A stretch of DNA of 62,055 nt, the filler included, from Sphacelaria rigidula (taxonomy: Eukaryota), in assembly GCA_964200075.2 (NCBI GenBank). It is 9 parts of 9 records of this genome, joined end to end, with 100 filler letters (N's around TTAATTAATTAA, not from the genome) between each part and the next. Parts side by side here need not be neighbours in the genome. Positions count along the whole stretch, not along the records: positions 13,815 to 20,621 come from CAXNAA020017987.1; 8 more parts are not named here. One strand, 5' to 3'. The first letter of the stretch is position 1. Each line of letters opens with the position of its first letter. Under the pieces are notes generated by a model. The model saw nothing but the letters and a program-made list of their open reading frames with translations. It did no database searches and was not told where the DNA came from. The position numbers and the translations under genes are program-made. Positions 1-48,245 of this stretch are shown one piece after another.

Positions 1-917
1 CTTTCGTGCAAGAGAGATATGCCACTTCAGCCCCATATTTTGTTTGAACCCCAAAATATAAAATCGGCTGTTCAATGTTAACCCGGGAAAATTAAATGTG
101 CACCCCGGTGCACCATCGACCTTTATGTGCACCCTCACCACTAGTCGCATGGTCGAGTCTTCTGGACTTCCCACTGCCAGCTCGAAAACGGAAAAGTGCT
201 CTGTGTTGATTGTTTTGAAGCTCAAATTTCTCTGCTCGCTCATCTCCATCCTCCATCCATGTATGATGCACACCGACAGACTGAAGGGAAAAGAGGTGAT
301 GCTTTGTGTACCGAGAGAAGCACAGTAAACCCAAGGTAAAGAGTGCATGGCGTGTACTGGAATAGACAACATCACGGCGACTACATTATATTCTACTGTC
401 TGTCAGTTGCGCTAAGTCTATCGGTAACACCATGACGTCCACCGTGCCATCTCTTCAGCAAAGTGAGTTTTGTTCTACAGACAGGACGGTACACATGACC
501 GTGTAGTACTACTGTATGTACACGGAAGCAAAAACACACACACACAACAGTACAGCGCAGTCGTCCTATTCTCGGTCATCCCGCTGCGTTTATCCCTTGG
601 TCGATCAGAATTGCTGAAGGATCAGATTCCACCAAAGCCCCGGGAAGCGTGATCCCTCCCTGCCGCCAGCTGTAAATTCAAGCCTTATTTGATCACCATG
701 GTGGGCATTTTTGAAGTGAAAATTGTGCCGAAGAAACAGAGAGCCCACCCTCGGTGTGACATGTTCTCGATGTTCTTTCAAACAACAGCGGACGGATGCT
801 GTAGGGCTTCGAGTAGACTTTACCACTTCTTAGTTCAAGATAGTTCTCGGAAATCCACGGCTTGTGGACAGGTGCAGTGTTGAATTTTAGTGTAGACACC
901 GAGTTCCGGATCTTCAA

Positions 918-1014
918 CCCTTTGACCTCGAAGGGAGGTTATCGTTTGAATCGACATCAACTTCACTTGAAAAAGTATGCGTGATTCAGATGGACTACCC
1001 TCGCGGTCTAAGGG
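918..1014. mobile_element. ~97-bp piggyBac-like MITE, copy 1
   Basis: TIR CCCTT(T/A)GACC..CG...CGCGGTCTAAGGG; flanks TCAA/TTAG (degenerate TTAA); homologous in opposite orientation to 13111-13208 and 41855-41955. Confidence 0.7.
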
Positions 1015-1049
1015 TTAGCCCTTAGCCCGTGATTCGGGTGTGCCTGTTG

Positions 1050-1300
1050 TCGTCCCATTTGTTTTTGGTACTCCATCTTCCTTCTGCGGTGCTTGCCCTT
1101 CCTTCTTTGTCGCGAGATGGGTTCAGCAGTACCTTTCCATCGTCCACTATCAAGTTGAGTTCCATGTACCCACGACATAGTCGCTCTCCACTGTTGGGCA
1201 TGGTGTGAGAAAAAATCCCAGATCGCTTCGAGATTCAAACCCACGACTCAACCGTCGAAAGATTCCGAGGTCATCGCCTGAGCCACTGCATGGGGCGACC
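1050..1300 (-). mobile_element. tRNA-headed SINE family A, degenerate copy
   Basis: Minus strand reads GTGGCTCAGGCG (A-box-like) ... GGGTTTGAATCTC (B-box-like); body (CCCACGACATA.TCGCTCTCCACTG on +) shared with 11078-11440 and 50095-50455. Confidence 0.65.
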
Positions 1301-1499
1301 GCCGCGGCGCGGGTAGTCCATCCCTGTCAACCATCGTGTACGAACATTTCATCAGGTCTACAACTCTAAGGGTCAACGGGCCTCTTATTATGCTAGAAGC
1401 CAAAGTATCGTGTAACAATGTAAAAGACGAATGTCACGCCGGTCCGAAACAGATGTGACTTTCAATCGGATCTTCAACTCTCCATTTCACGAAAACATT

Positions 1500-2482
1500 G
1501 TTATTTTTGTCTTCGCCCGTTGTCGGCCCCAACTTTACAGAAACAGAGGCAGGGATTTCCGAGTACCCCCTCACCTCAAAACGCTTCAGGAGCGTGTCCG
1601 TGAACGTGGTTTGCGTCACAGACAGCGTGCCTCTCTCCCAGTCTTCATCCACTGCGCATCCCATGTACCAGGTGGCCTCTCTGAGATTGTTCGTAGAGAA
1701 CGTTTTCATACCCTGGACGATAGAGTACACGGTCAAAAAATGTACTGCGTACAGTATGGAATCTATTGCCTATAGTACGTTTTGTTCAGGGTTTTGCCCA
1801 CCTTTCCTACGTTTCCCTCAGAACCACTGATAAGAATGTCGTCCACGTTGACAGATATATCCACACGCACGTCTCCTGCATCCTCCACCCTGTAAACACA
1901 TGGGTCAGCCTCACACTGTACCATCCCGACATCCTCCAGTAAAGTTTGGCACAGAAGACGAGACCACTGCCTGCCCGCTTGCTTGACCCCGTGAATAGAT
2001 TTTTCCAGCTTCACGGTCACGTATGTCCAAACGGAGCAACCTTCAGGCAACCTCATGTACACGTCAGCGTCCATCTCTGCTTGAACGAAAGCCTGTGTCA
2101 CGTCAAACTGATACAGCGGCCACTCTTCCTGAACTGCCACTGCCATGACCAGTTTGATGGAGGCCATGGAGGGCGTTATCGCGAAAGTCTCGAAATAGTC
2201 GACTGCGAAACGTTGTCCGAACCCTCGTGCTACCAACCTTGCCTTTGCCTTCGTTACAGTACCATCTGCGCCAGTGTTCCAACTAAAAACCCACTTCGCA
2301 GAAATCACGTTTACTCCTTCCGGTACAGGGCCAGTCGAAAATGTTCCAGCCTTTTCATGACCTCCTAGTTCGGCCTGCATCACGCCTAGCCATGCCTCTC
2401 GAAACTCTGATTTTGCTATGTCATCCATTCTGGTGGGTGCTGCCTCGATCTCGCTTACATGTAGGCCAACCGGTGAACGCAA
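1500..2482 (-). pseudogene. Copia reverse transcriptase (RVT_2 family), interrupted and 3'-truncated
   Basis: Motifs ISAKWVF, KAKARLVARGFGQRFAVDYFETFA, QFDVTQAF, SIHGVKQAGRQW, DPCVY and VNVDDIL; continues after a 77-bp insertion as FSTNNLREATWYMG...LSVTQTTFTDTLLKRF. Confidence 0.93.
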
Positions 2483-3227
2483 ACCGAATTCAGGCTGCCC
2501 TAGTCTGTTTTCCTCAGCAACAAAACTCGTTTTCGGCTAACTCGTTTTGGGTCGAGGCGACTGCATCTTGTCCGGCCACCTGTCCTGCTGCCGCGGTGAT
2601 CTCCATGGTTGAGCATTTGTCCTCGGCCATTCCCGCCAGCGCCATCTCCGCTTCCTTTTTGCTCCCCTCCGCTCCGCTAGCCACCAGCGTTTCGCGTCGT
2701 GTGTGTGCCGACCCCATGGCCTCGCGCGTTTGGCTCCTCGTACGCCCCGCCCTTGGTGTTGGTAACCGGTCAGCCCACGCAAGACGGCGTTGCTCGGTCC
2801 TCGGGAGTTGAGGAGCGTCGCCGCCTCCTCGCCGTCTTGCGAGGGGCCCGTGGAAGAGGGTGGCAGTGCGGGCGACGAGGAAGTGTCCGATGCCGATGTG
2901 AGCGTCGGCGTAAGTGTCGGCGTATGCGCTGGTGTTAGCGTTGATGATGATGACGATGATTCCAGCTCCGCCTCACCCCCTCCGTTGACAAATTCTGGAA
3001 CGGGGATCTCTAGTATCACCCCGCCTTCCCCCCCCCTCGCAGGGACGGTGAAGGCACTTCACCCCCTCCACTACTGACGGGGATCTGCGGTGCCGCTCCG
3101 CCCCTCCCACCGACAGAACTCGGCGGGGAGGACGGTGCGCTTGAGGAACCGCTGGACGGAGTGTCCACTGTCGAGATTTCCGTCCTTTCTTCACTTACTC
3201 CCTGGCCTTGATCGACGCTGGAATCCT

Positions 3228-5045
3228 TCAGCTCGCCCGGCGTCTGGATCGCTTGCCGTAGTACTTACCCCCCCGCCCAACAGTCAATGCATACTCGCTT
3301 GTGTCGCCGTTGATGGTGGTGTCGAAAGAGGTGAAAGCCTCCCCATCCGCCACCGAACAAACGGAGGAGCCGTCGCTGTCGTCGGTCGCGCCCATCGCCA
3401 TCACCACGTCTTCTTTCTTCGCTGTCAATCTCGGACAGTCCCAGAACGTGTGCCCCTGCTGACTGCACCTCCCGCGGTATCTCTTCGGGCAGTTCCTGGC
3501 TCGGTGCGTCGTGTCCTCGTCGCAAACGTGGAAGCGGGGCAGCTTCCCAGTCGCCGGTTTGCCGTCCAACAATGCCGACCCAGAGCTACTTGAACTCTGG
3601 CTCCCGCCGTTTTTCTGACCAGAACCGTGTTTTTTTTTCGATTTTCCCTTGCGGTGTGCACCGCTCGGTTTTCCGGTCCCACCCCTGGCAAGGAGAGCCT
3701 GGTCGCCCGGGGATGACTTCTTTCCCCGGGAAAGTTCCTGCTTCAAAGATGTCGATTCGAAGCGCTTTCGGATCGAAGTCAACACAACCTCCCGTGTCAG
3801 TGGCCCCTCTCGATCCTCGAGCATTTGCTTCTGAATGTGACACTCGAAGGGCAATGCGTTGAGGTATTTTAAGAGGATGTGGTTTTCGCTTGGTCGTTCA
3901 TGCTCCTCGTATGAGCCCAGGTTACGTGAAATTTCCTCCATCTCGAGCAGCTTCTGCTCTGGGTTATCAAGAACACCAATCTTGACTGCATTGAACTTTT
4001 CCAACAAAGAGGTTCTCGCTCCATTTGTTTTGGGGCGAAATGCATCCTTGAGTTTTCTCCAAACCGCACCTGGTGAGTGGACTCTGACCAAAATATCTTG
4101 CTCACTCTTTCCTTCTAAACTGGCAATAACCATCCGTCTCGCCCTCACGTTGGCTGCCACTGTGTATTTCCCGTGTCTACCTTCCAGATACCTCAGTGCT
4201 AATTCAGGATTACCAACATCTACGTCATGCGAACTATCGCCGGCTATGAGTGATGCTACGGTACGGTTGCACTTTTTGAGCGAAAATGTTTCTCGGGGTG
4301 TTGCACGCATCATTTTGAGAATCGGTATCCTTTTCACTTGAAAAAGACTGAAAATGATGCCGCTTCACGAAAAGGCCCCTGTGTGCATCTCCATGCCCTG
4401 TCCCCGGAGATTTGGGTCGCACAGTAAGCCCCATATATTTGGGCTCCTACAAACGAAACCCAGAAAAAAAGTGCAACCCCTATCGTAGCATTGGTCCCAT
4501 GGTAAACACCCAGTCAATTCCTTCGCCCCTCGCGAAGTTGACCAGCTCATGTCTGTATCGAGCATAATCGGCGTTCTTCCCTGAAAATTTTGGAACGTTC
4601 TGTCGAAAAGCGGAAATCCCTGACACCTTTCCACTTTCATCGTTTACTAGGATTGACTCACGTGCGGGGACAAAGCCCCTAGCTCCGTCACGTGTGGCCT
4701 CGTTGTCCCCTGCGTCGCGCGCTCCTTCCTCTGGAACAGCTTGACCCCCGATGTATCGTCGGTCTCTTCGAACTCCGGCACCATGTCGTTCCACTGTTTT
4801 ATTCGTATTGAATTCCCCTGTTGACTATGGGAACCATCACTATCGAGGACGCCATTGGTTTTTGCGCCCCCGGCCTCTTTTCCTGCCCTCATATCGTCCA
4901 TGTTGCTCTGTAAAGCAGCTTGGTTTAACTGCAAATCACGCAGTAGCTGAGTCATAGAACTCAGTCGGCTATTCACCTCCCCCAATTGCTCAATAACACC
5001 CTGCTCACCGACTACAGTAGCAGGCCTACTACCTTGATCTGCCAT
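3228..5045 (-). pseudogene. Copia gag with two degenerate CCHC zinc knuckles, frameshifted and MITE-interrupted
   Basis: ORF pieces 4647-5054, 4480-4794 and 3228-4337; VPKFSGKNADYARYRHEL, SPGAVWRKLKDAF, LLKYLNALP, HVCDEDTTHRARNC and GRCSQQGHTFWDC. Confidence 0.85.
4248..4496. mobile_element. ~250-bp MITE with GAG termini and 4-bp TSD (Sola2-like), copy 1, inserted in copia gag
   Basis: TIR ~GAG(C/T)(A/G)ATGCTACG(A/G)TAGGGGTTGCAC; TSD CTAT/CCAT; homologous to 25954-26207; removing 253 bp restores the gag frame (WVFT-IAGD). Confidence 0.85.
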
Positions 5046-5261: not shown

Positions 5262-5452
5262 AATTTCTGCACATGTACATGTTCACTCAGTGTACCCGTT
5301 CACATGAACACAAGCAGCTTATACTGTACCGTTTTATATACATTACTCCGTCTGGCCAATGACAAAGACATGAACATCGAACGAATCAACTCCTTGATAG
5401 ATGCTTGGTTATGATACGGTATGCTATAGGGTAATGCTACTGTACCACCCGG

Positions 5453-6450
5453 CCGCGTTCGTCTCCTGTGCCTTGCATCGACACCACAACACTTGCAGTA
5501 CACTCACACAGTCTGTGACCATCGTTCAAGCCATCGCACGGTGCCAACGGCCTCGTAGCGAGAGAGAAACGCGTCTGCTGCACAGTGCCAAACAATACCG
5601 TCAACGGCTGGAGGTGGACATAGGTTATGTCCAAGTCGCGACTTGGACATAGCTCATGTCCACCTCCAGCGATTGAAATACCTGTCCGCGCTCGTCCCAT
5701 GTGCCTTGAACCAGCACTACAACACCCGGAATACACTCACGCAGCCCGTAGCCATCGTTCGAGCCATCGCACGGTGCCAACGGCCTCGTAGCGAGAGAGA
5801 AATGCGCCTGCTGCACGGTGCCAAAAAATACCGCTGCCCGACTGGAGGTGAACATAAGCTATGTCCAAGTCGCGACTTGGACATAGCTTATGTTCACCAC
5901 CAGCGATTGGGATACCTGTCCGCGCTCGTCCCATGTGCCTTGCGTCGACACCACAGCACCTGCAATATCCTCACACAGTTCGTAGCCACCATTCAAGCCA
6001 TCGCACGGTGCAAACAGCCTTGTAGTGGACGAGAAACGCGCCTGCTGCACAGTGCCAAGGAATACCGCCACCCGACTAAAGGTGGACATAAGCTACTATG
6101 TCCAAGTCGCGACTTGGACATAGATTATATTCACCACCAGCGAGTGGAATATCTGTCCGCGCTCGTCCCATGTGTCCTGTATCGACACCACAGCAGCGGT
6201 CTGACAGTTCGTAGCCATCATTCAAGCTATCTTGCGTTGCAAACAGCGTCATAACGGACGAGAAACGTGCCTGCTACACACAGTGCGTTCCGCCACCCAA
6301 CTGGAGTTGGACATCATAATAAGCTACTGCATGTCCAACTCCAGCGAGTGGAACACCTATCCGCGCTTGTCCCATGTGCCTTGTATCGACACCATAGCAG
6401 CTACAATATACTCACACATTGCCCAGCCACTGTTCAAGCCACCGTAGGGT
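5453..6450. repeat. Tandem array of ~234-237-bp units, each with a ~62-bp palindrome
   Basis: Units start ~5453, 5686, 5920, 6157 and 6361 (CCGCGCTCGTCCCATGTGCC); palindrome centres TCGCGA at 5638/9, 5872/3 and 6109/10; degenerate fourth at ~6301-6344. Confidence 0.92.
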
Positions 6451-6807
6451 GCAATGCTAAAGCACGCGGGAGCAGTATCACGATGCTGTAGCAATTGGGA
6501 CTAGATATACAACATTGGCCTTCTTCCCCGCAGCTCCTACAGCCGTGGGAAATCGACCCACTAGTTGTGTGTCGAGGACATCACCGGTGAGACGACGAAA
6601 GGGTCGATTTATGGAGCCATTTTCGCGGCTGGTACGCGCTATCCGCACTTCGTACCCAAAAGCCCCAGGTTATACGGACAGCGTACGTAAATAACGTGCG
6701 GCGCGAGACAGCTGATCAACGTGTACATTTAACAGCAAATTGTGAGAATTGAGGTTTAACTCTGAATTGAGGCTCAAGTGGGCAACCCAACTTTCAAACT
6801 GTTTGTA

Positions 6808-15176: not shown

Positions 15177-15420
15177 ACTGAGAAAATATTGACTTGAGTA
15201 TGACACATGTACACAGAACACTTTGAAGTATGCCAAATATGTCGGGTGAAATAACTGGTTCGAGTGGTTACAAAACGTACCAGTTAACTGTTACTGGTCA
15301 GCTAAACTGGCAACCAGTTGACAACTCTACAAATATTCGGAACAGTGTTTTTCGGTACAGAATCGCCGACAACTTATTGAAACAAAATGTAGTCCGGGGG
15401 GGTGTAGTGGGCGGGGGAGA

Positions 15421-15644
15421 CGTACTAATTTGTTGCTTGCCTTGGAGTCTAGTCGTGTGACCATTCACCACGAATCCCTTTCAGTCAGGGGGTGGGGGGG
15501 GGCGTACTCATTTGTTGCTTGCCTTAGTCATTTGACCATTGACCACGCATCCCGTTCGAGACGGAGCCACGGGGGGGGGCGTACTCATTTGTTGCTTGCC
15601 TTAGTCATTTGACCATTGACCACGCATCCCTTTCGAGACGGAGC
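15421..15644 (-). mobile_element. Three tandem copies of the G-run-anchored ~65-nt element (15421-15482 degenerate, 15503-15567, 15580-15644)
   Basis: Core CGTACTCATTTGTTGCTTGCCTTAGTCATTTGACCATTGACCACGCATCCCTTTCGAGACGGAGC on +, each preceded by G-rich sequence; CAGTCAGGGGGTGGGGGG is duplicated at 15482 and 15644. Strand given is the inferred RNA sense. Confidence 0.85.
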
Positions 15645-16303
15645 AGTCAGGGGGTGGGGGGCGGGAAATAGCGTCTTCCAACATACCTCACGCACATCGT
15701 TCCGCCACGAGAACGCAATTCGCTGCTTTATTTTCGATTGCTTCCTATGAAACTTTGACACGATGTACAGGATGTGTGAGCGAAGAGCCCATTTCCCCCC
15801 CTTCACATTTTGTTTTTGCGTGAGTAATCGGCGACGAAACGTTTCAGAACAGTTCTCCATAATTAAATCGAGAGGAAGTCACGAGAAACTAATGTACACG
15901 GGGAGAAGTTAGGGTCTTTGCACATACCGCATGCACGTGGTATCAAAATGTACCTATTCGCATCTTCGGCGGCCCGGCGTGTATATGCAGCGTGAGTCAT
16001 ACGTACATGTTGCCCACCTTTTGCTCGTATGATATAAATAGTGGAAACATGTTGCTTCCCACCTAAAGTTCATGGGGCGCAACTGTTCGATGGCTCAGCC
16101 GCCTTGCAGATCAAGTGAGCAAGTATACGCGTATACGTCGCGAACCCCTTGAGGGCTGAATCCGCAATAAGCCCAATCTCAAGTTTTTTACTCGCACCTA
16201 ACACATCATCTATCGTACAAGAAACGCGTCTGCGTGACCAGAGCGGTTTCTCCAGCCGTATGTTTTTGGCGAAAAACAAAAGTAGGTACGGTCCCCCTTA
16301 CTC

Positions 16304-17638
16304 AAGCCAAAACGTAGCTGTAGTTAACTGCGCAAGTTGGAGCTATCCGTGCTAGGACCAAACCACTCAAGAATCAATTCCCACGCGAAGGCGAGGCGCC
16401 CACAGCCCGTGCAGAGCATGTGCACCACTTTCGCAGATGAAGAGCAGGGTTTTACGGTGGAACAGTGCCGCGGGAAACACGGGCCGTGCAGTTTACCCCG
16501 TTTTGCCCGACAATGGGGTGAGACTACCCAGCAAACACCGCTGAATTTACCTTGTACCTCATTGTGTCTCACGCTTTCAGAGCATGTCCAAAGTGTGCCT
16601 CTATTTTACCAATATGGGCCTTCCACAGCTCCCGTCCAACCCAACGAAGGGCACAAACGGAGTGGACAAAGAGCTTCTTCAATCCTTTTTTTGCCTCTTT
16701 CTACGGGCTGGAGTCGCGAGAGCCCATGCCTGATTTCACCTCTTTTTACGGCCTGGAGACGCAAGAGCCCACGCTTTTTTTCACCTCTTTTTACGGCCTG
16801 GAGACTCGAGATTTCTCTGGAGTAATTGGCACACCACGCGACCGTTGATAATCGGTACGACAAGCTGGGAAATACAGAACACAACACAAACGGCACAAAT
16901 GACGGAATGCAATGGCTGAACCACACCGTCGCTCCGCCATCGCTTTGACCGCCAGCGCAACCAGGTCCAGACAACTTGCCCTTCAGGGTGGCGGCAATAT
17001 ACAACGCAATTGTAGTAGCAGTAGAAGCACACGAAAAAACCGTGCGGTATACTACATGAAACGATTGTGGACACGAAAAGACAAGCGAGCAATGCCAGAA
17101 TCTGCCCGGAGTACCATTTGGGGGATTTGGAGGTGATACAACTGTGAAGCGCAATAATCTTGGCATTTATTCGCTCAAAGCTTCTTGTAATGTTCGACAT
17201 ATGAATGGCCCTAAAAGGAGGTGAACATTGGCGTGAGCTCCTGCGTCTCAAGCATGGATCAGAGAAGTTCTCTGTCCACTCGGTTTTGCGCCGTACGTTG
17301 GGTTGGACGGGAGCTGTGGAAGGCCCATATTGGTCAAATGGAGACACATTTTGGACATGCTCTGAAAGCGTGAGACACAATGAGGTACAAGATAAATTCA
17401 GTGGTGTTCACCTGAGTACACTCCATCGTCGGGCAAAACGGAGGGGTACACGGTATTGCCTGTGTTTCCCGCGGCACTGTTCCGCCGTAAAACCCCGATC
17501 TTTATCCGCAAAAGTGGTGCACATGCTCTGCATGAGCTGTTGGCGCCTTGCCTTCGCGGGGGGGTTGATTCTTGAGTGGTTTGGTCCTAGCACGGACAGC
17601 TCCAACTTGCGCGGTTAACTGCACCTACGTTTTGGCTT
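16304..17638. mobile_element. Foldback-type element with ~380-bp inverted arms
   Basis: 16304-~16685 is the reverse complement of ~17255-17638 (both arms translate as MELSVLGPNHSRIN...); the spacer holds three ~44-bp tandem repeats; no TSD found. Confidence 0.85.
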
Positions 17639-18153
17639 AAATATGGTGCCGATCGTGTGTGAACATATCTTGATATCGGTAGACTGTATTTGGAGCGGGA
17701 CAGATTCGCTTGATAACTTGCCAATCTGATCGCTCCATTCCGCTTGGGAATCGCCAGCGGAGTACTTTAGCACCAAGTCTTCGTGTTCGTGCACCAGGGG
17801 AGTACTCTAAAACCAAGTGTTTTGCGGTCTAACTCGTGGCGACTTTCAGACAAATCCAGTATCATGGATAATACAGTATTATAAACATACTTGAGTATTT
17901 TTCCCAATTTCCCCATCAAGCTCCGGCGAGAACCCGGCGTGCTCCGCCTCGGCTTCGCAGGGGTGAACCCCCGATGGGGTTGGCGCGAGGGGCCCCATAT
18001 CGTGAAATGGCTGCACCAACGCCCCCCAGGCCGCAAAAACCTCATTCTGGGGTTGGAGGAGGAGGGGTGGTACCCGATTCCATGGGGGGGTACCCCCCTG
18101 ATCGCTGGATGATGGCGAAAGTAGTTGCTGCGCTGCACCGCACGTGTAGTAAT

Positions 18154-21881: not shown

Positions 21882-23826
21882 AGTGCCCGTGCGAACTGCC
21901 CCACCTGTTGCTGTCGTCTATTCAGCATTCCCTTGGACTTGTGTAAATACCGCGGATCTGGAGACACGACGACAGCCACAGTCACTAACCACGCTGTTCG
22001 TCATTCGTCACACCCAGACCTCACGACCTGTGCAGTCCTGTCAAACGTTAAGTGTAGTGTGCGTTTTGTCAAGATGTGGGCAGGCCATTTGCCTACGGTA
22101 GGAAGGAGAAGTGATACAGAGGATAAACGACCGGCGTGATTCCAACGTTGGCGAGCGAATGATAGCTGCCGTGCCGAAGTACAAAGCATTGGATATACTT
22201 CCAGTCTCAAGAGCCTGAGCCAGCAGCTGCGGAGGAGTTACGGAGAAGAGCATTCAATTTACGAGGCTGACGTATCCTACATGACTGACATGTCAAAGGA
22301 GTGGTGCGCCGCAGGTAATGAAGTACAGTAGATCTGGTTTTTGTCGGAAAACAAAACCATGTGTGCTCAAAGGATCACATGAAAATGCAACAGCTCATTT
22401 GGATATCAATCTACCGGAGAGAGCATTCATCGGGAGGTCCGCCTCAGTTTTCGAGAAGCTGAGGGGGTTAAAATGCGAAAGGCGGGGGCCTATGAATATT
22501 TCAGTGCAGCACAGGGTAGAACAGGTTGCGTGTTTTAGATGGGCACCGGGCGGCGCCTATACGTTAAGAAAAACGTTTATTCTGGGAGGGTGAACTCATC
22601 ATCATCATCATCTATATATATGTAAAAGTGATTCAACGGGATGCATGGTTTTTGGATAACATTTACACAATGCAGTTGTGTGCAGAAATTTCTAAATATG
22701 ACGGTACCAACACACCTCTAGTTCGTGTACAGTGACGGGCTAGACACAGTTACCCACTAGTGTAAATAAGCCCTAAGTATTGGGAAAACGGAAAAACGCA
22801 ACAAAACAATGCGACGCAAGCTAGGGTCGCACACTGATTTCTTCACGGCGCAAAGATGAAAAAAGTAACTGAGTTCCTCCTTGCATGAGGATACAGAGCT
22901 CGCGCCTCGTGATTCGATTTGATTATTTTTATTGATTGTCGCATATTAACTGAACCCCCAGAGAACCAGTCGTGTGGTCACATTATAGACGTACCCAAGA
23001 TAAAAAAATACTGAAACACTCGCTGATGAAAAGGAAGGAACAGAAAAAGTCGAACGTAACGACAGCGTAGACTCAGACGTGAAGCAAAAAAAATGAAATG
23101 AGAAGTCAAGAAAGGCAAAGCACAGAAATACAAGGCCGGTCCGAAACGAAGTAAAAGAAAACAAAAAGAGAGAAAAAACAAGGTGAAAGATCACGGGATT
23201 CAAGGCAGCAGAGTAGATACAGGCACATGAATGATTCTTAAACCATGTCTTAGCGTGATGAACAACTTCGATAAGAAAGCATCGTCGGGTGTGACTGGTC
23301 GCGCATTCATGAATTTTCTGGATGTGCGTCATATTTTCCCACGCTACGTTCCCCTACGAGCAGTTACGTCCCGCAGTGGTAAAAGCCAACATGAGTTTGT
23401 GTACTGCCCAGTTGGAGTGTGTGCGAAACATACCTTGAGTAGAAATTCCCCTCTTTCTCGTATGCAGCTATTAGTGATAAAATAATCCTGCACCCTGATG
23501 TGCGGATGTCAAGACCGAAAGGCGTGTACACGTTGAACAAATCTGAAATCTTGCGTGATGTACAATGTTTGCAACATTCACTTGCTATACGAGTAGGATG
23601 TTCCAGTGACAGCTGGCATCACTATATCAGGGTGCGGGGTTACAGTATGAGGCTTCCAATTGCTATATGAAAAACGACTGGAGAATCGACAAATGTTATT
23701 TTTTGCTGCAATGGTATTTGTTTTTGCCGAAGCCCCAAAAGGACTACTTCGAAAGTCATTGCCATGTTCGAAAGATAAGATTCGCGTCTGATTTTTCTTG
23801 GGGGCGGAGGGGAACGGGGGGGGGGG

Positions 23827-23840
23827 CGTACTCATTTGTT
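23827..23840 (-). mobile_element. Heavily truncated copy of the G-run-anchored element
   Basis: G-run + CGTACTCATTTGTT(G), flanked by the exact direct repeat GGAGGGGAACGGGGGG (23806-23821 and 23841-23856). Confidence 0.75.
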
Positions 23841-23897
23841 GGAGGGGAACGGGGGGTTTGCGCGACCAACCACACGCCAATCATCATGATTATTATT

Positions 23898-29868: not shown

Positions 29869-30944
29869 TCTACCTTAAGACGAGCCACAGTGCTCAAAAG
29901 GCACGTTTTCCTTTTTATTTTTTTCCTTCGATTGAACATTAAATCTTGATAGAACCACCAGGGTCGAAGAGTAGGATGACTTCAAGAATGTTTTGTTATC
30001 GGCAAGTAGTCATTCTGTTCTAGTTTCCGAGTTGGTTTGCGTATTTGTTTGCTTTCAAGAGTGTCATATGTCCTTGTTCTTCTGTTGAACTGGGGGTGAT
30101 ATACAACGCCACACTAAATGGATATCTCGTCACGTGTACCACGTCAAGATTCATTTTGCAGGCTTGTAGTCGGATTGTTTTTGTCGGCATATATTGCCCG
30201 TCCGTTTCATCCCCTGTTTTTCGATCACTGTTATGCCCTGCCCATTTATGCAGTATTTTTCATTCATGTATGCCCCGAGGGTATGGCTGTGATTTCATAT
30301 TTCGTCGTGTAGGGGTGTCATATCCCGTCATCTACGGTAATTGAACTTAAATTTTTGACTCGAGATGACTTCTACGAGAGATGTTGCGTTATACAGACAG
30401 TACAGTAGTCGGTGTCATATTCCCGACATGAACTATTTGGTGAAGCACTCAACATGTTGCCTTGTATGGACAACCACTTGTGTTCTCAACTGTATGGATT
30501 GACAGTCAGGACTTCAACTGACCGTGATGTACAGTTCAGGAGGGCAAGATCACATTGGCTGATGATACTGAGATGCGGTTGTTTTTTGGGTTCCCGGACG
30601 TTGGACGCTGATCAAGCACGTTGAGCACGCCGACTGCAAGCAGAGACGGAATTTCGAAGTGTTGTAATGAGCGATTCCACGTAGCATTTCTCTCATGTTC
30701 AACTGCCTTCTGTATACTGTACTCCAGGCTGATTACTGCTTGCATACCGCGCTGCATTACAGCCTGCTGTGTACTGGCGCATAATCGAAGTATCATGTGC
30801 ACTGCAATGTTGATACATTTACGTTTCTGATGCTGCGGGCCAATGCGGGCCAATGCGGGCCAATGTGGGCCAATGCCATTACTTTTGTTTTTCGTCTCTA
30901 CAGATTGTTTGTTGAGAATGCTCCCCTACCCCCCCGGCGTGTGA

Positions 30945-30977
30945 TCAAATGACTAAGGCAAGCAACAAATGAGTACG
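30945..30977 (+). mobile_element. Truncated G-run-anchored element in poly(C)-tail orientation
   Basis: TCAAATGACTAAGGCAAGCAACAAATGAGTACG + C12, flanked by the direct repeat CCCCCCCGGCGTG(TG)ATCAA. Confidence 0.8.
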
Positions 30978-33900
30978 CCCCCCCCCCCCGGCGTGATCAA
31001 TCTCGGATTCATATGTATACTTTGGGAAGCCTTATGCATATACTGTTTGTAAAGGGAACATTTGAATTGATTTAATTCTGGCGAGCCAACAAAATATAGT
31101 ACTTCTGCGTGTGTGAGTTGTCGTCTCATCCATTCTGAATGCCAGTTTACACCTTTCATTCTATGTGGGCACACTAGCCGGAGTCTGAAAGGAGGATCAA
31201 CATGTGATGGTAAATGACTGAGTGCCTGAATTAAACTAGTTTTTTGGGATTTGCTGATGGTCCCCAGAAACGACCGGCGAGTATGGGAAGATTCTAGTCA
31301 AATGTGTGTCTGTATAAGGCAGGATTTCGATTTTTTTTATTCGTTGACGCAGCTGCTTGAAGCGGGGTACAAGATTGTACCCGATTAGCCGCGTGTACCT
31401 GCTGCTACTACAGCTTTGATTGGCTGAGGGCACGGCGCGTCACGGTGATTTTGTATTATGACAAGGTTGTAAGCGGGGCAGGAGGACGTACTGACATAAT
31501 AGCTTTCCCCAGCTGTTGTACCTCGCCTACCGAGGTCACTCGACACACCGACCGCAGTCTGCAGGCATCTATTGGGTATAAGAAGAGCTTTTTACGATCA
31601 TCAACCACCACTGGTCTCCCTGCCTACAGTGTCGCGAGCCACAGTATTGACGTGAGTCTCTTGTTGTGCTATATGTGTACCCTCATCCACAATTGTTACT
31701 TGTTTTCTGGCCTTGGGCTGTGTGATTCCCAAACAGCCAGTTGATCGAAAGAGAAAAAACCCACAGTTTGATACAACGAGTTGATCGCAGGACGGGCTTG
31801 CCATAATCTCATCCGCCTTGGGGTGTAGCTTGCTCTGCTAACGAATACCCCGGCAAACACAGGATTTGGTTTTTTTCCCTGTATGTTTTTAGTACTCCAC
31901 CTTATGCAAACCGAAAAAAGCGACCGCGGGCTGGGCGACGAGAACGCAACCGCTTGGGGGACTAAGCAGAAGCCAGGGCGCAGGAACCAAGCACGCTTTG
32001 GCATTTAGGTTTTTATCATTTGATTTCTTCGGGAGTTTGGATTTGATTCGGAAAATTTCCGCCTCGTTGTTCACAGCAACCTGACATGCCGACCATGTGA
32101 AACGTCCCGTGATTGCATTTTTTTGTTTGATTGTTCTAGTTTTTGTTCCCTACGCCCTACGAAGTACTACCGTAGTTCGGTTATGAGTCTTTTACTTTAT
32201 CCTTCACATGATTGCAGTGATTTTGAAATTATCGAGGAAGAAAATAATGGGGGGGGATTAGACTATTTGCTACCATGATTCCCTTTTCGGGTAATTAAAA
32301 ATTTGACTATTTGCTACCGTGATTCCCTTTTCGGGAAATTAAGAACATGTGGTGGGTTATACACAGCAGATTATTTTGGTGGAAAAATCATGTGATGGGG
32401 TGATCCACGGCGGAGTATTTTGGACAATTTGATTCGTCGGTTATGGATTTCGAGAGGGAGTTTGATATTTTGCAATCCGCGGTAAAACGTTTTTGACAAA
32501 TTGATTCGCCGGCGCTGGAGTTTGGGTTGGACATTTTCAACTGCTGAAAGAACATGGCGTGGATTCAACCTCGAGTATACTTCTGAGAGTGGAACGGTTT
32601 TTAGTCTTGGATGTCACTAAACAATTGACTACCCACCCGCCGTTCAACATGAGGGACTGACTATGCACCAGGATACTCACGAGAATTGACTCTGGGGTCA
32701 TCGATGTTATGTTTTCATATACTACCTGGAAGCAATACTCCCTGCAAGTCAATATGTAATATTGAATCGGGGGGGGCGTTTTAATACGGAGCAGTTTATG
32801 TCACGTCCTCTCCAGGGTGTGGCGTTTATTCAAGGAGTGATACCCGTCCTGATACATTTTGGGTGATAGTCCTGTTAATGAAGCGTAACTCCTAATTTGA
32901 CTTCTTTGCATGCACGTGGACTTTGGTGTACAGGGATTGATTTTTGTGTGAAAGAGAAAATTTCTAAGTGGGACGATGAATTTGACGATTTCGGGAATTT
33001 ATCGGGCCGGATGACGAGCGAGATTTGCATCAAGATCAGTAATTCGAAATGAAGTGGACTGATCAACCGCTATTTTTAGTGACAATATTTTTAGTGCTTA
33101 CAGAGTTTGGTTCTATGTTCCAAGTTTCTCCCTGATAGAATATTCGCAGTACAAGTCGTTGTGAAATGAAGGAGTACACTGGTACATTCATTTTTTCTGG
33201 GGTATTTTAGGTTTATAAGTGAACGAGGTTCAGAAGAGATGTTTTTTTTTTGTGTTCTGATATCAATGGATCCAAGCCTGCAAGTATTCACTGATGTGGG
33301 TAATATCAACTATTCTAGGCAGTTGATAGATCGTCGACATCAGGGAGGCTAATGATGTTTTGAAAGTGACTCTGTCTTGTTTTTCTAGGACACAGAGTTG
33401 TACAAACAGAAGCAGGTCTTGTGTTCTTATGTTGGGGCAGATAGGAAATCTATTTATTTCTGTATCCGAGCATACCTCTAGTTTTAGTGTTTTGATTTGA
33501 ATTGATTCGATTTGAATTTGAATTCCGTTCTCGAACTCGAGGAGAAGTGGTACACACACTACTACTGAAAATTTTCATTTTGCGGTGTGTATTTTACATA
33601 CTATTTCGAGGAGTTGCTCTTTGTTCAGTGGAATGATACCGCGGTCACTGCACATGTTGACGGTAGACACTTGCCTGATGTAGACCGTGTTGTAAACGGT
33701 ATGTTGAACCAAATTTCACATAGACAACAGCATCTTGCTACCATGAGAATAATGCGTTTTTGACAGATTCGAGTATTTGAAGGTTGAGTGTGTTTCTTGA
33801 ATGCCATCATGGTAACTGAGAAGTATGAAAAGACGTCCACTGTGCATTCATGTGTGATTTTTGGTTGTTCCAAGGAAGATTTGGGAACTGGTAATGATTG

Positions 33901-34377: not shown

Positions 34378-34433
34378 GGCTCATCCTACGATAGGGGGGG
34401 GGTATTTGGTTGCACGAAAAACGAGGCTCATAA
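34378..34433. mobile_element. Terminus of a TIR element related to the Sola2-like MITE
   Basis: TCATCCTACGATAGGGGGGGGGTATTTG.TTGCACGAAAAA.GAGGCTCA; reverse-complement match at 41450-41504; resembles the MITE TIR GAGCAATGCTACGATAGGGG. Confidence 0.6.
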
Positions 34434-34620
34434 NNNNNNNNNNNNNNNNNNNNNNNNNNNNNNNNNNNNNNNNNNNNTTAATTAATTAANNNNNNNNNNN
34501 NNNNNNNNNNNNNNNNNNNNNNNNNNNNNNNNNTATCTGTGTCTGTAGTCATTCTGGTGTCCCTGAAATCCCCACAGAATCATCCGCGTGCACCGGGGGG
34601 AACGTCAGGCAGTGGGGGGG

Positions 34621-34685
34621 CGTACTCATTTGTTGCTTGCCTTAGTCATTTGACCATTGACCACGCATCCCTTTCGAGACGGAGC
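34621..34685 (-). mobile_element. Full-length G-run-anchored element
   Basis: Identical to 15580-15644; flanks GCAGTGGGGGGG and GCATGTGGGGGGG. Confidence 0.85.
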
Positions 34686-35126
34686 ATGTGGGGGGGGGGC
34701 AAGAAACCGCCCCCTTTAAAAACCAAATCTGGCTTTGGCTCGCAACCCGCCTTTGATGGAATGATTGTATCGACGCAAAAGCAAAAATCTGCCTCAAAGT
34801 ATGGAATCTGACTTGATATTTTCGAATATTGTGCAGCACTATCAAAGCACGCGCATCGACTCTGTTCACTGGGTGATATCGACTGCGTTGTGACCTTTTG
34901 ATGTCGAGAGGCTAGGTCTCGCTGACGACACAAGAAGTCGAGTACGCGAGTGTGTCCGCGCACGTTATACCTTGCGCGGTGATCCCCTAGGCAGGCTTCA
35001 CGAGTCACCTCTGGGACAACGGCATGCACACGTGTGTAACATCTTTCCTACTGGTGACAAGCGTTGATGTTGCGACTGCAAAAGAAGATACCCCCAAGAA
35101 TACGAACCACCTGAACGGGGAGCGAG

Positions 35127-36751
35127 CAAGGGGCCCTACAGACTGGAATGCGTTACGCAGGGCCTCGGATTCCCGAAACCCTCCCTCTGGGCGAGGGGGG
35201 GGGGAGGGGGGGTGCTACCCCCTTTTGGAGGGGTGGGTACCCCTCTGATCAGATGGATAATGACGACAGTAGGTACTGTACTTTGCAGTACGTGCATGAA
35301 CGGCTTCTCCTGGCTTGTGCCAGGCTTGTGTACAAATTGTGTATGGTACGGTTGCACGGCAGGTGGTAGGGGTACGTCGACGTAAGTAACGTTCAAGTCT
35401 TGATTATTATTCGTGAGAAAAGCATCCTCTCGTAAGGATCGACTAGACAACATGCGGCACGATACATGAACCTGTGAAAATTTCTGGAAACGTAGCCGTG
35501 GTTGTTCTGAGACCCGCACATTGTTGGAGTAGACTATGCCAGCATGAATAAAGATTACAGGACCGTGACTTCTTTACTACTTTCTTTACCGGCATCATCT
35601 TTACGAGATTCTCGTTTGTCCCTTCTCCTTGTGTCGCTGTGCAGTATGCCGACCTTTAGAGATGGCCATTTGAACAGCTGTCCGGGCGCGCGCACTGCCT
35701 ACGCGGGCACCAGGTGATCATCCTTGAATCATCTACAATTGTTTGATACCATGGAAGTACTGTCATAACCTTTTCATGCCGGTTGGAATTGTACACGGTG
35801 AGGACAAATAAGATCGTGATTCAACTCATGTTCATCATTTCAACAAATAAATAATACGATTCGTACATCATGTGTGATTTATACAGGTTTTGAGCTATTG
35901 TGTCGTGCAGTACACCGTCAACAGTACCACTTTCCTACCTTCAGGTCATTGGGGGTAGATCATGGGCACATATTGATCCCCTGTAAAAAAATGCGGAATG
36001 AATCACTTGTACATGCCGCCCACACTTACCATGAGGCGTGAATGGCATCTACATCTATGTCATGCGTATGACTCGTGCGGAACGAAGAGTGGGTATATCG
36101 TTAAATCCTCTCATCTCATGGGCCTTGCATCAGTCGTCCTTTTCTCCCGATCTGTATGCGGTTGAGATGACTGTACTGCATGTGTGATACACCGTCGGGT
36201 ACATGCGAGACCAACAATTCATACAGGTTGACTCCTGTCGTTACATGAGTAGTAAACTCGTATGAATCGTGATTTGTCCTAACCATGGAATTATTCAGTC
36301 AAGTCACAGTAGTAGTGTATAACTTTGGTGTCACTCAGCGATACATATAACCCGTCGTGCACTTGCCTTGATGGACAAACAGAACGCTATCGGGTTCACA
36401 TCTTGAGTATGCTGCCCTCTCCAGCATTGCGCCCTCACTACTGTAACATCTATCCCAAAGTCATTATCCAGCGGTCACCTTGACTGAAAAGTCATCATCC
36501 AACCGCCAAGTTCTCTTCCCTGCGGCCGCTAGAACAACTGATATGCCCAATCTCCTCGGTTTTGGGCTGCTCGGGTACAGGCCAGCATCGTGGTGGTGAA
36601 AATACACTTCAATTCTGTATACTGGCGAAGAAACAGGGGGGGAAAGGTTTTTGGACACCATTATTCGATTTTCCTCAATCTCGACCGCCTCTGGGAGGGG
36701 GGAGCGAGGGGGGGGGGCTGCGTAACGTATTCCAGTCTGTAAGGCCCCTTG
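35127..36751 (-). mobile_element. ~1.6-kb TIR element with a decayed transposase-like remnant
   Basis: 34-bp TIR CAAGGGGCC(C/T)TACAGACTGGAAT(G/A)CGTTACGCAG; minus-strand peptide SSFRTSHTHDIDVDAI (~36040-36090) resembles the GHTH-x-D-x-D motif of Sola-type transposases. Confidence 0.7.
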
Positions 36752-37923: not shown

Positions 37924-40900
37924 GGGAGGGGAGTGCGGCATCCGATCACTGTATTGCCGCTTTCTTTATGACAGTTTTCGGGCTGGTTTGGGGGGGGGGG
38001 GGGGGGGCTATCGCGGGACATCACTCGCCTGTACCTGTAGCGTAGTCTGAAACTCTTTTATGGTTATGATATTGCCAAAACCTACATGGGTGTGGTACGG
38101 TGTCGACTAATCACAAGTTAGCTTTAGTATTCCAACCTGCGATTTCGCGAAACCGACGGCAGCAAATGGTGTCCCAGTCGAGGTCAACAGCAGAGATCAA
38201 TAGAGAACCGTCGGATCTAGAATGTACGTACTTCTCTCTGAGAGATGGGTCTAAAGTTGAAACACAGCGTTGTTGGAGTTTAAACCACGAGCAACTAACG
38301 ATTGATCGTGCGGTATATGAAAGATGCGCCCACGCTAGCTATCCGCTCACCTATACGCGCCCCGCCAATAGCGGCGGATATGGATATGCACCAGCAGCGA
38401 GGGGGCGGGCAGAGGTAATTGAGAACCGATCTACACGCGGTTCGGTTTAGAACCAATAAAACTCTGCTGAGCAAACTTGGGCCACACGAGGTGAAATAGA
38501 CACGAAGAAGGTGATGACATATATAGCGTTTTTATCATTGTTGCTAGTGTCGATATAAAATAATTTATGTGATGCAAAACCGTAATTGAATATTCCCTTT
38601 AGTATGCAGTTCCTGAGCTTTCTACCACCCACTCTACCTATGAGATAAGTATATCTCAAATTTACGTACGTCTTTAAATAATGGCCCCAGCAATTGCGGG
38701 GTGAACGACAGAATCGCACGCACAATTCAAGCATAAACAGGCAAGCAGACAGACCGTGGCTCGTAGGAGAGGGAAGGAGGTGGTCTAACGCGGAAGGTGA
38801 CTTGGTACACAACTAAGCACCGATATACATACAATTTGCGCCATCAGGGCTGGTATTTATTCAGAAACCGAGCCTGACGCCGAAGAGGCTCTCTCCAAGA
38901 AAAGGCCTCGCGTGCAAACTAGCACAGGGCAACCTGAAATAAATATTATGGGATCAAGATAGGCCAGGTCCCAAAAAGACGGACACATCGCCGAAAAGCA
39001 TCTGGAACGGAAGAGGGAAAGGAGGACTCAAGTCTCCAGTGACTGCGGTACCCCAGAACGGATGCTGCCGTAGTACCGACGTTTAGTCGGGTCCAGGTGT
39101 TGCAGTAGAATCGAATAACATCGTTCTAGAGTCTCCTCCGGTGTCAGCTCGGGTGAAGTTGTGCACGATAAAGCACCTTCATCTCGGCGCGCCTGTAGAG
39201 ACAACAGTACATCCAGTACGGTACCGTTCACACAACGCATAATGTTTTCGCCCACGAAGTAAGCGAAACGCAACCATGGACATTTCGTCTAGAACGAAAA
39301 CTGTGTATCGAACGAAATCGGTCGCATAGCATTACTGCAGGTAACTTGGTCTTCTTTCTGACGGCAGTTTGCACTCGCAGCCGCTCACGATTGCTGCAGT
39401 TGCGTGATTTACCTACCCAATGACCTGACTGACCCCGGTTGCGGGCGTGCGCGTGTTTGTTCTTGTGTTTGTTTTGCGCTTTGCCTACTTCAGCAGCGCT
39501 AGGTTACCCTGACTTCTTCTTGCCCTTGGCTTTGCTGCATGCTCACGTAAACAACTGGCAGAAGCCGGCGACCAAACGAAACACTAGCCTGGAGCGGGGG
39601 GAAATCTCGCACCCGAGTGAAACTAGCAACGTCGGCGATTTTGGTAGCTACGACTCGTATCGAGGAATACCGTCCTGCGAAAGGACTGTCGAGGCACGCA
39701 GCACGCTCCTGGGTCGGGGGAGGGGAAGCAGCTACTGTAATCGGCTCGTCCGTCGCCCCCACCTTACCAGATCACCTCAAATATTGCAGGTACGCGCAGT
39801 TAATATATATTGTAGATACTGGACACAGTCGTATACAGGATAGCACGAGCAGCCCCGTCAATGCAATACGACGGTCTCACACTGTAGTCGTCTCCCGGTA
39901 TCGCCTGTAACAATCAGTATCGGAGTTTTTTTTTTTGCACTATTATTATGTCCTTCACGGTGCTGTACTCTGGTGCTCTCATTTGTCCTACTCCTTTTTC
40001 GTGTAGACGTGAATGAGTTATAGAGCTTCTCTTCCGAACTATACAGTCAAGGCAGTGTCGGAAGCTCAGCTCCCCTCCAGGGAGAACTGTCCTCCGTTTC
40101 ACGGTACTCATCCCTGATGAAGAGATGGCCGGAGTTTGTTCTCGCTCGACGTCCGCTCCAGGTACAGACTCAGCGGTTGAGCCGTAACCAATGGCTTCAA
40201 GACTTGAACTCATTATCTCGTTTCCCGCTGAAGGACGCTTGGATCGAGTGGATAATACGATCGGGTGAAGAGTTGCTCGAAAGATAGGGCTGGGGTTGAG
40301 TGTTGTTCCCTCTACTGTATACTATTACTATCATACGTAAATGTGATCTGAGTAGCGGCGTGTTTCTCCATCAGCCCTTGGGAGTCAATTTTTTATCTCG
40401 ACTCTGACTCTCATTGTTTTTCAAATACTTCGGCATGTACGGACAGTACAGTACCTTGTTGGGTTTGCCACATTTTATTGCTTTTTTGTGTTTTCCCGGA
40501 CTGTTTGGATCAAGACTATACACCCCCTTGAGTATCTGCGACCGGGAGCACGTTCAATCATTTTTTTTTTTTTATGCTGAGTTTGAAACGTGTTGGTTAT
40601 ATCCGAGTGCTGTGCTGTCTTCGATGAAAGGGAGGCTCTGCAAACTCCCAAAAGTATGAGATGAACACGGCGCCATTCGTGCAAACGCAGCGGACGCTGG
40701 CTCGCCGCTCGAACACCCAAACCAGCGTTGTACTGTAGGTACTATGGACCACCAAGTTGGACCAATTCCAAGATGCTTGCGTCACGGCTCGAGCTCAACA
40801 AAACCTTCGCGCATGCGTAATCCTGCTACGCGATTGTTGTTTTCGGAGCAGTTCCCCATTTTCGGAACAGCTTTCCCGTCTGTTTTTCTACACCCCCGAG

Positions 40901-40950
40901 CCCAGGTGTGTATGTACCCTGGCTGAACGTCGACTGACGTGGGGGGGGGG

Positions 40951-41021
40951 TGTACTCATGATCATGCATACCATAGTCATAAGACCATTGACCTCGCATC
41001 TCTACAAAGCCGGGACGGAGC
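40951..41021 (-). mobile_element. Full-length G-run-anchored element, subfamily 2
   Basis: G10 + TGTACTCATGATCATGCATACCATAGTCATAAGACCATTGACCTCGCATCTCTACAAAGCCGGGACGGAGC; same GACGGAGC end as subfamily 1. Confidence 0.8.
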
Positions 41022-41278
41022 ACGCCGGGTGTTCGCCGGACCAGGCCCGCACTCAATCACCAAAGCGCCGTGGTGTGTTCGGCGAGTCGCATGAAGGGTG
41101 AGCTGCATCCTGCTAAGATTGTTCGGCCCCGAGCCTACTGATTATCTTGCATTCGGATCTCAGCCTCCAATGAGTTGCTTTATTTCGTGGTATCGCCACT
41201 TCCTGAGACAGCCACGGCTTACACACTGCCTTATGGGTGCCTTACCATATGAACATATGATATGATGTGGGGGGGGGG

Positions 41279-41339
41279 CGTACTCATTTGTTGCTTGCCT
41301 TAGTCATTTGACCATTGACCACGCATCCCTTTCGAGACG
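41279..41339 (-). mobile_element. G-run-anchored element cut by the contig end
   Basis: G10 + consensus core up to ...TTCGAGACG. Confidence 0.85.
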
Positions 41340-41854
41340 NNNNNNNNNNNNNNNNNNNNNNNNNNNNNNNNNNNNNNNNNNNNTTAATTAATTAANNNNN
41401 NNNNNNNNNNNNNNNNNNNNNNNNNNNNNNNNNNNNNNNCTGACACACTTGTGAGCCTCTTTTTTCGTGCAAGCAAATACCCCCCCCCTATCGTAGGATG
41501 ACTCCGTACACCATCCCTCACACCTAGCACTGCGTCCTATCCCTAGGCCCATTTTTTTCATTCCAAGCTCACTGCTGTCAATTCATCAACAAGAGCGATG
41601 TACAGGATGATTGTCAGAACTAATACATCGAGAAGCAGGAACGGTACGACTGACTACTCTACAGTGCCGTGACTTTCACCTAGAGCACTGCTACACCATA
41701 ACATGTAGGTCCAAGATTGCTCGTTGAACTCGGGAAAAATAGTCGAAAACCAAAATGGCCGTACGCGAGAAAAAACCACACGGCCCCCTCGGCACGAAAA
41801 TATTTATTCACTCTTTTTTGTCATGCTCATCAGCCGCAGCAGGAAAAAGCTTCA

Positions 41855-47607: not shown

Positions 47608-48245
47608 ATGGCCGAAGTCGCGAGGAAAACGTGCCTCAACAAGGGCTGCTCGAAGCCATCTCACGGTTCACACGGCTCCATGCCGGACTTGTGCTCTCAG
47701 CATGCCACGGCAGGAATGGTGAATGTGGTGAGCAAGAGGTGCGGCCACGAGGGCTGCTCCACGCGGCCGTGGTATGGTGTAGCGGGAAGTAAGAAGGCGC
47801 AGTTCTGCTCGAGGCATGCCACAGAAGGAATGGTGCGTGTGAGGAGCAAGAGATGCGGCCACGAGGGCTGCTCCACGCAACCGTCGTATGGTGTAGCGGA
47901 AAGTAAAACTGCGCAGTTCTGCTCGAAACATGCCATGGCGGGAATGGTGAACGTGGTGAGCAAGAGGTGCTGCTACGAGGGCTGCCTAACTCATCCGTCG
48001 TATGGTGTAGCGGGGAGCAAAAAGGTGCAGTTCTGCTCCAAGCATGCCACGGTGGGAATGGTGCGAGTTATTAGCACGAGGTGCGGTCAGGAGGGCTGCT
48101 CCAAGTGGCCGTCGTATGGTGTAGCGGGGAGTAAAAATGCGCAGTTCTGCTCCAAGCATGCCCCGGCGGAAATGGTGTATGTGAAAGGCAAGAGGTGCGG
48201 CCAGGAGGGCTGCTCTACTCATCCGTCGTATGGTGTGGCGGGGAG
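47608..48245 (+). CDS. EsV-1-7 cysteine-rich repeat protein (3' end lost at contig break)
   Basis: Uninterrupted ORF with tandem 38-aa C-x4-C-x16-C-x2-H repeats (KRCGHEGCSTRPWYGVAGSKKAQFCSRHATEGMVRVRS), the pattern of the EsV-1-7 domain family expanded in brown algae. Confidence 0.92.

Follow-up and report, generated by a model that had tools for sequence, protein, structure and literature searches.

What is the repeat of about 65 nt that recurs beside G-tracts at 15421–15661 and at other places in this DNA, and how does it move? An earlier note on the same sequence proposed a free-standing, poly(C)-tailed mini-retroposon that inserts at G-tracts and belongs to no standard class. The window, by which we mean the whole stretch of 62,055 bases analysed here, consists of nine contigs of 6805–6807 nt with N44-TTAATTAATTAA-N44 spacers between them, and the near-equal, descending contig sizes suggest whole contigs from a length-sorted, fragmented assembly. 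The core repeat is present in 11 copies on six of these nine contigs. A 50-nt stretch of the core occurs in four exact copies against 0.00 expected (100 shuffles), and a core 15-mer with up to two mismatches gives eight matches against 0.12 expected. The tally depends on the tool, with nine copies by nhmmer and 11 by blastn. The blastn copies lie at 15421, 15503, 15580, 23827 (14–15 nt only), 27484 and 30945–30977 (match orientation −), and at 34621, 40951, 41279, 52299–52358 (−) and 61996–62055 (−), the same 11 places that had been claimed from the sequence alone. The lowest-ranking matches are 23827 (E 0.007) and 27484 (E 1.1), which we count as copies since each has the G-run junction and resembles the copy at 40951 (family D16).

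The copies differ mainly in length and in what flanks them. At 15421–15482 on the minus strand lies a diverged copy of about 62 nt, 84% identical to the core, 5′-truncated at ...CCCTTTC and carrying a G-rich degenerate tail (15392–15420). Beside it is a two-unit insertion with a 17-nt target-site duplication (TSD), AGTCAGGGGGTGGGGGG, on its left (15483–15499; the G-run is extended by GGG at 15500–15502) and on its right (15645–15661). The insertion itself comprises a 65-nt unit with one substitution that reads APSRTGCVVNGQMTKASNK* (15503–15567, minus strand), a spacer of CAC plus G9 (15568–15579, the G9 at 15571–15579) and a second, head-to-tail 65-nt unit on the same strand (15580–15644), with the same sequence as the LINE 3′ end on L001 (see below). 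The diverged copy fits an insertion older than its two-unit neighbour, and the cluster as a whole (15392–15661) fits a history in which the right-hand G-rich flank of the old copy later took the two-unit insertion. Also on the minus strand are an extreme 5′-truncated copy (23806–23856), in which 14 nt (23827–23840) and five extra G lie between 16-nt TSDs, GGAGGGGAACGGGGGG; a subfamily-2 copy of G11 followed by TGTACTCATGATCATG... that is cut by a contig end (27473–27527); a 65-nt unit (34621–34685) whose 3′ end adjoins G7 and whose 9-nt TSD, GTGGGGGGG, is weak (feature 34612–34696); another subfamily-2 copy, of G10 plus 71 nt, that ends in ...GGGACGGAGC (40941–41021); and G10 plus core, cut by a contig end 4 nt before GGAGC (41269–41339). 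On the plus strand are a 33-nt 5′-truncated copy (30945–30977) followed by C12, with TSDs on both sides (30929–30995); a diverged copy of about 60 nt, 88% identical and followed by C5 (52299–52363); and a copy that starts at GCTCCGTC (61996) with C-rich target before it and has its 3′ end cut by the window end (61970–62055). A possible internally deleted copy at 32769–32792 (G8-CGT...ACGGAGCA) was rejected, as TTAATACGGAGCA recurs at 61383, far from any G-run or core, and so looks like a separate recurring motif.

One end of the repeat is fixed and the other varies. The sequence Gn-YGTACTMAT stands at the same end and in one orientation in all 10 copies whose 3′ end can be seen, the 11th being cut by the window end, and this common 3′ end is shared by copies of 14, 33, about 60, about 62, 65 (four copies) and 71 nt. 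At the opposite end, the copies at 15503, 15580, 34621 and 61996 (subfamily 1) and at 40951 (subfamily 2) stop at ...GACGGAGC, others stop earlier, at about 14 nt (23827), 33 nt (30945–30977), about 60 nt (52299) and about 62 nt (15421), and two are lost at contig ends (27527 and 41339). Read directly, the two termini of the unit, CGTACTCA... and ...GACGGAGC, do not form reverse complements; since they are not terminal inverted repeats and the TSD length varies, the unit does not fit a MITE or other DNA transposon. Direct repeats that include the G-run are found at three insertion events: 17 of 17 nt at 15483–15499 and 15645–15661, around the two-unit block 15503–15644 as a whole; 16 of 16 nt at 23806–23821 and 23841–23856 (as good in 0 of 500 shuffles); and 13 nt exactly, or about 17 with a 2-nt indel, at 30929–30941 and 30983–30995 (as good in 0 of 500 shuffles). 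The 9-nt repeat at 34621 is matched in 47 of 500 shuffles, and the TSD test at the copies 40951, 52358 and 15421 found none. In the three events with clean TSDs, the G-run forms the end of the TSD and has 3–5 G more on the element side than in the other TSD copy; the copy at 34621 is a counter-case, with an element-side G-run shorter than that of the TSD copy. A fixed 3′ end, 5′ truncation and variable TSDs that end in a G-run are the anatomy of target-primed reverse transcription (TPRT). On these points the description in the earlier note, namely a single fixed end fused to G-rich sequence, another end that is either a common boundary in five copies of both subfamilies or truncated, direct repeats with the G-run inside them (given there as 16–20 bp, here 13–17 bp), and no terminal inverted repeats, agrees with what is found.

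The nature of the element becomes apparent where the core is followed beyond the window. When 22 nt of the core were searched for in metagenome contigs, three loci (L001–L003) were returned, and a scan of viral contigs with the core returned none. All three metagenome loci run past GGAGC / GACGGAGC into one common element as far as their contigs reach, so the free-standing, ORF-less mini-retroposon of the earlier note does not stand: its supposed boundary lies within a longer element, an outcome that the note had itself named as refuting. On the strand complementary to the G-run strand, L001 holds an open frame of 1253 codons (L001:694–4455(−)), with the 5′ side running off the contig. The ORF (697–4455(−)) has a reverse transcriptase domain at residues 634–883 (RVT_1, E 7.7e-33) and an endonuclease domain at residues 64–285 (Exo_endo_phos, E 3.1e-11; Exo_endo_phos_2, E 9.2e-07), and these three are the only Pfam matches at E up to 0.01, with no GIY-YIG among them. 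APE-type LINEs have this domain order, with the endonuclease N-terminal to the reverse transcriptase. The search for an autonomous reverse transcriptase element with the same 3′ sequence plus poly(C), which had been put forward as a check, thus ends in an APE+RT LINE on L001.

The core itself proves to be coding. In one frame it reads APSRKGCVVNGQMTKASNK*, where no ORF had been seen before, and the L001 ORF ends in the same peptide; the frame closes with ...NGAPSRKGCVVNGQMTKASNK, TGA and GTACG, followed by a C-run. Window units are 100% identical to the L001 3′ end over 73–74 nt. From the shared peptide and this match it follows that the core is the last 19 codons of the LINE, its TGA stop, a 5-nt 3′ UTR (GTACG) and then (C)n, such that the whole unit of about 65 nt corresponds to the 3′ end of the LINE, a trait that SINEs share with their partner LINEs. 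The claim of an ORF-less element outside the standard SINE and MITE classes gives way accordingly, the longer element being an APE+RT LINE whose ORF ends inside the core. With a 3′ UTR of only 5 nt, the sequence recognized at the 3′ end is itself coding.

Of 8000 candidates scored in a protein search with the LINE ORF, 159 are related to it at E no higher than 0.001. P0001 is 90% identical to the L001 ORF and is 1360 residues long with an M start, P0002 is 77% identical, and the closest named relatives are proteins of Ectocarpus sp. CCAP 1310/34 at 47–71% identity. P0001, P0002 and the Ectocarpus protein P0004 end in ...NGQMT(K/T)ASNK (for P0004, ...NGAPSRKGRVANGQMTTASNK), and 29 of the 120 relatives retrieved have a VVNG-like C-terminal motif within their last 30 residues. 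As relatives share the C-terminal ending, it is a trait of the lineage that the ORF extends to the element's end. Relatives P0006–P0035, at about 40% identity to the LINE, are single ORFs with an N-terminal region before the endonuclease, conserved ...VFGV.../...GWRCV... motifs, and G-C-V-V-N-G-x3-A-M-A-A at the very end of the protein. Distant named matches include 'craniofacial development protein 2', at about 29% identity, a name that we take to be linked to RTE; like the brevity of the 3′ UTR, this name is no more than a hint of an RTE or RTE-X affinity. An ESM Atlas query returned generic reverse transcriptase and endonuclease clusters that do not point to a clade, and the papers listed for RTEX in the open full-text literature yielded nothing on 3′ ends. 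The available text of PMC12477816 sorts Ectocarpus LINEs as CRE, RTE, RTE-X and Unknown; for the curated elements that text mentions neither a (C)n tail nor a G-run target.

How much of the LINE is present in the genome of the window? A full-length LINE was not found in the window, which holds just a 35-residue fragment of a related ORF at the start of a contig (27628–27732, minus strand, 60% identical to L001 residues 1158–1192), and when the 120 retrieved relatives were all compared with the window by tblastn, the core copies and this fragment were the sole matches. The core is interrupted by the end of three window contigs, and the related LINE ORF by the start of another, which places the LINE family at four of the 18 contig ends, as expected where short-read assembly breaks at a high-copy repeat. 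A second repeat family, distinct from the LINE core, lies at two other contig ends in opposite orientations (34394–34433 and 41440–41488) and reads CATCCTACGATA-G9-TATTTGNTTGCACGAAAAA.GAGGCTCA.AA, with the G9 inside the shared sequence.

Contigs of public sequencing runs cover much of the LINE. Nine run rows share part of a unique 2-kb stretch of the window, and contigs of four such runs (three 'organism A' samples and one algal metagenome) were aligned to L001 at a likeness of at least 88%. The four gave 99,902, 77,003, 44,611 and 14,859 aligned records that cover 28, 26, 25 and 25 of 30 bins, respectively, with zero cover in the L001 flank bins 299–596; among the pieces listed for the four runs, none spans the whole LINE. 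Just before place 681, the first G of the L001 run, 1079, 953, 544 and 186 records have loose ends, and the consensus of these loose ends is a G-run in four of the four runs.

Taken together, the 65-nt repeat is probably the 5′-truncated 3′ end of an abundant, oligo(C)-tailed APE/RT LINE of a brown-alga-like genome, which inserts by TPRT at G-runs. The proposed cycle would begin with a genomic copy followed by its own (C)n, whose transcript would carry oligo(C) after the 3′-terminal recognition sequence. The endonuclease would nick the strand that bears the G-run, on the 3′ side of the run, a position suggested by the TSDs since they end in it, and the 3′-OH of the G-run would pair with the oligo(C) and prime cDNA synthesis. 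The cDNA would start ...G-CGTACTCAT on the G-run (primer) strand, which implies a template of 5′-...GCUCCGUC...AUGAGUACG followed by C's. Synthesis would mostly stop early and leave copies of 14–71 nt, and a staggered second nick 13–17 bp away (upstream, on the other strand) would give a TSD ending in the G-run. What we infer is the oligo(C) in the RNA, where the nick falls, the pairing that primes synthesis and what causes copies to favour one 5′ end, as discussed below. Because the element-side G-run is 3–5 G longer than that of the TSD copy, the template 5′-GCUCCGUC...AUGAGUACG-(C)n is very likely right; of the earlier proposal of oligo(C) priming at a G-run, the TPRT anatomy and the template orientation hold, and what falls is the ORF-less, unclassified element to which it was attached.

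The G9 at 15571–15579 is informative here. It lies inside one TSD-flanked insertion and so does not derive from the target, but was copied from a template C-run or added by the polymerase. With the G-run duplicated in the TSD and lengthened by the tail, an insertion would leave two targets behind, and further insertions, nested or head-to-tail, would be favoured. The window has 16 runs of at least 9 G/C, of which about half touch a copy or a TSD (by a count over the list of runs). There are also G18 runs at 37990–38007 and 55310–55327, G10 runs at 35195 and 36708 and a C10 run at 26463 with no recognizable core beside them; they may belong to the tails of different families, mark insertions of zero length, or have nothing to do with the LINE. 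A dispersed repeat beside G-runs is seen twice, at 18084–18150 and 35195–35270 (…GGGGTGGTACCC…CTGATC…GATGATGGCGA…).

The remainder of the window holds features of other kinds. A copia-type retrotransposon fragment at 1763–4337 (minus strand) has an RVT_2 match (E 3.2e-35; reverse transcriptase at 1763–2482) and a weak gag below the Pfam cut-off. Tandem repeats are present at 5372–6454 (period about 233–234 nt, 3–4 copies) and at 56488–56791 (period 76 nt, three copies). An inverted repeat at 16296–17646, with 204-nt arms that are 87% complementary, inner 124-nt arms at 93% and about 0.6–0.9 kb between, is a candidate DNA transposon or foldback element. An open frame at 47608–48245 encodes six EsV-1-7 cysteine-rich repeats (E 1e-78), with 114-nt tandem repeats from 47684 to 48253, at the contig end. 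Together with the copia-type reverse transcriptase and the Ectocarpus proteins closest to the LINE, this frame leads us to regard the source as a brown alga or something closely related.

One feature of the copies is left over by early termination as such. Nine window copies have a visible 5′ end, and five of them begin at the same base, 65–66 nt from the 3′ end; a pile-up of 5′ ends at one base is not what random early termination predicts, so a discrete 66-nt RNA may exist. The 65–66-nt units would then be a non-autonomous mini-retroposon, a discrete short RNA mobilized in trans by the LINE, which we consider a genuine possibility, short of being probable. Such an RNA would perhaps be a minimal LINE 3′ recognition module plus oligo(C), made from source copies of its own or by processing of LINE RNA; the machinery would be that of the LINE cycle proposed above and only the template would differ, so the two readings are compatible. 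The shared first base spans two subfamilies, and the run contigs point the same way. Among the 15 joints listed of 764, nine return from places 733–757 to 681–683, seven of these leave from 750–754, and the commonest, 754->681 ('goes back 74'), is found in 55, 41, 20 and 4 contigs in the four runs. These backward joints are head-to-tail arrays of the 65–66-nt unit, some with extra G-rich letters between units, and in run X4 a further 249 loose ends behind place 754 have a G-run as their consensus. In the window, the two-unit block within one TSD (15483–15661) fits a polymerase jump from the 5′ end of a short RNA to the tail of the next; the reverse transcriptase of R2 is known to make end-to-end template jumps.

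Against a separate short RNA stand the further copies whose truncation falls at other points (lengths of 14 and 33 nt, and of about 60 and 62 nt), the lack of an evident promoter, and the coding nature of the boundary itself. The start GCTCCGTC is also coding (APSR) and is conserved in the LINE, so that it is weak evidence for a mini-element, and the likeness of the two subfamilies at this point needs no mini-element. ARAGORN found no tRNA genes in the window, Rfam gave no match there at gathering score, and a B-box-like pattern matched eight times in the window against 13.35 expected, with no match in any copy; the earlier statement that pol III boxes are lacking thus holds for tRNA and for B-box-like sites, and a SINE head (tRNA, 7SL or 5S, with an internal pol III promoter) is rejected on these three results. 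A self-cleaving ribozyme (HDV-like, hatchet and others) at the 5′ boundary of the unit was likewise rejected: Rfam and ribozyme covariance models gave no match in L001:600–1100 on both strands at E up to 5, and the fold of the unit plus tail is ordinary (−17 kcal/mol, z −0.33, with 66 of 200 shuffles folding as well). The preferred end may have its source in a discrete short RNA, in arrays that are transcribed and re-copied, or in a strong polymerase stop; a discrete RNA may in turn have a start site of its own, arise by processing, or represent the protected footprint of a bound protein. Of the discrete mini-unit first proposed, then, the 5′ boundary common to five window copies and many run contigs survives, while the unit itself is the 3′ end of the LINE.

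Two further explanations were weighed. Endonuclease-independent capture of LINE cDNA at broken, quadruplex-prone G-runs, or a satellite spread by recombination, would account for the tandem arrays of the unit, and G-runs are plausible fragile sites. Both are improbable, however, given 13–17 bp TSDs that argue for staggered nicks, an orientation to the G strand that is fixed in 10 of 10 copies, the dispersal of the copies over six contigs with different flanks, and the recognizable endonuclease domain in the LINE ORF. Least credible of all are terminal fragments of a Chlamys-group Penelope-like element (PLE), a group with (C)n and (CA)n bias, pseudo-LTRs and head-to-tail non-autonomous insertions in the available text of PMC8557442 and with three PLE/Chlamys families in Ectocarpus (PMC12477816, Table 1), which recall the G/C-run targeting and tandem units of the window, but membership fails on the AP endonuclease N-terminal to RVT_1 and no GIY-YIG in the element behind the core, and clean TSDs are seen.

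A comparison with known systems helps to separate what is ordinary in this LINE from what is unusual. L1 elements have a poly(A) tail and use T-rich nicks, RTE, CR1 and I elements have short-repeat tails, and microsatellite tails are inherited in other LINEs. The family described here resembles APE-type LINEs in its single long ORF with APE followed by RT, its fixed 3′ end, 5′ truncation and variable TSDs, and, under the proposed cycle, in a tail that would be complementary to the primer strand at the nick and whose repeat would be inherited with the copy. It differs from L1, RTE, CR1 and I in the (C)n tail and the G-run target, and from APE-type LINEs in that many copies are just 14–71 nt, with a preferred 5′ end at 65–66 nt. 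With SINEs and LINE-derived mini-elements it shares a LINE-derived 3′ end, an apparently discrete 5′ end and a high copy number; unlike SINEs, it has no pol III head that our searches found, is shorter than usual at 65–66 nt, and consists in its whole unit of LINE coding sequence. Chlamys PLEs, in the available text of PMC8557442, are similar in their (C)n bias and in head-to-tail, short non-autonomous derivatives that share the 3′ end of the autonomous element, whereas they carry a GIY-YIG endonuclease and the L001 LINE an AP endonuclease. Among the papers listed in our search of the open full-text literature, none has poly(C)-tail wording for retrotransposons or non-LTR LINEs. The 5′-truncated LINE tails are ordinary; the C tail with a G-run target, the 5-nt 3′ UTR and the 65–66-nt unit with its arrays are unusual.

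A mini-retroposon look-alike that is the tail of a LINE matters for the annotation of brown-algal genomes, and fragments of 14–71 nt together with G-runs break short-read assemblies. If a family of this kind holds, with each insertion leaving a lengthened and duplicated G-run, many long G-tracts would be explained. A broader picture, more speculative and in our judgement rather unlikely, is that of a lineage of single-ORF APE LINEs, in brown algae and other marine protists, in which oligo(C)/G-run pairing replaces the poly(A)/T-rich logic of L1, the recognition signal lies in the last 20 codons, a discrete 66-nt RNA is copied singly or by template jumping into head-to-tail arrays, and the family is a main generator of long, quadruplex-prone G-tracts in these genomes. 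A 66-nt RNA, if real, would to our knowledge be the shortest LINE-dependent retroposon, and the preferred 66-nt unit could define the minimal RNA recognized by such a reverse transcriptase. Priming of oligo(C) at G-runs, if confirmed, would supply an endonuclease and reverse transcriptase pair with a simple and different homopolymer specificity, and would provide a natural test of the rule that the tail of a LINE pairs with the nicked target strand.
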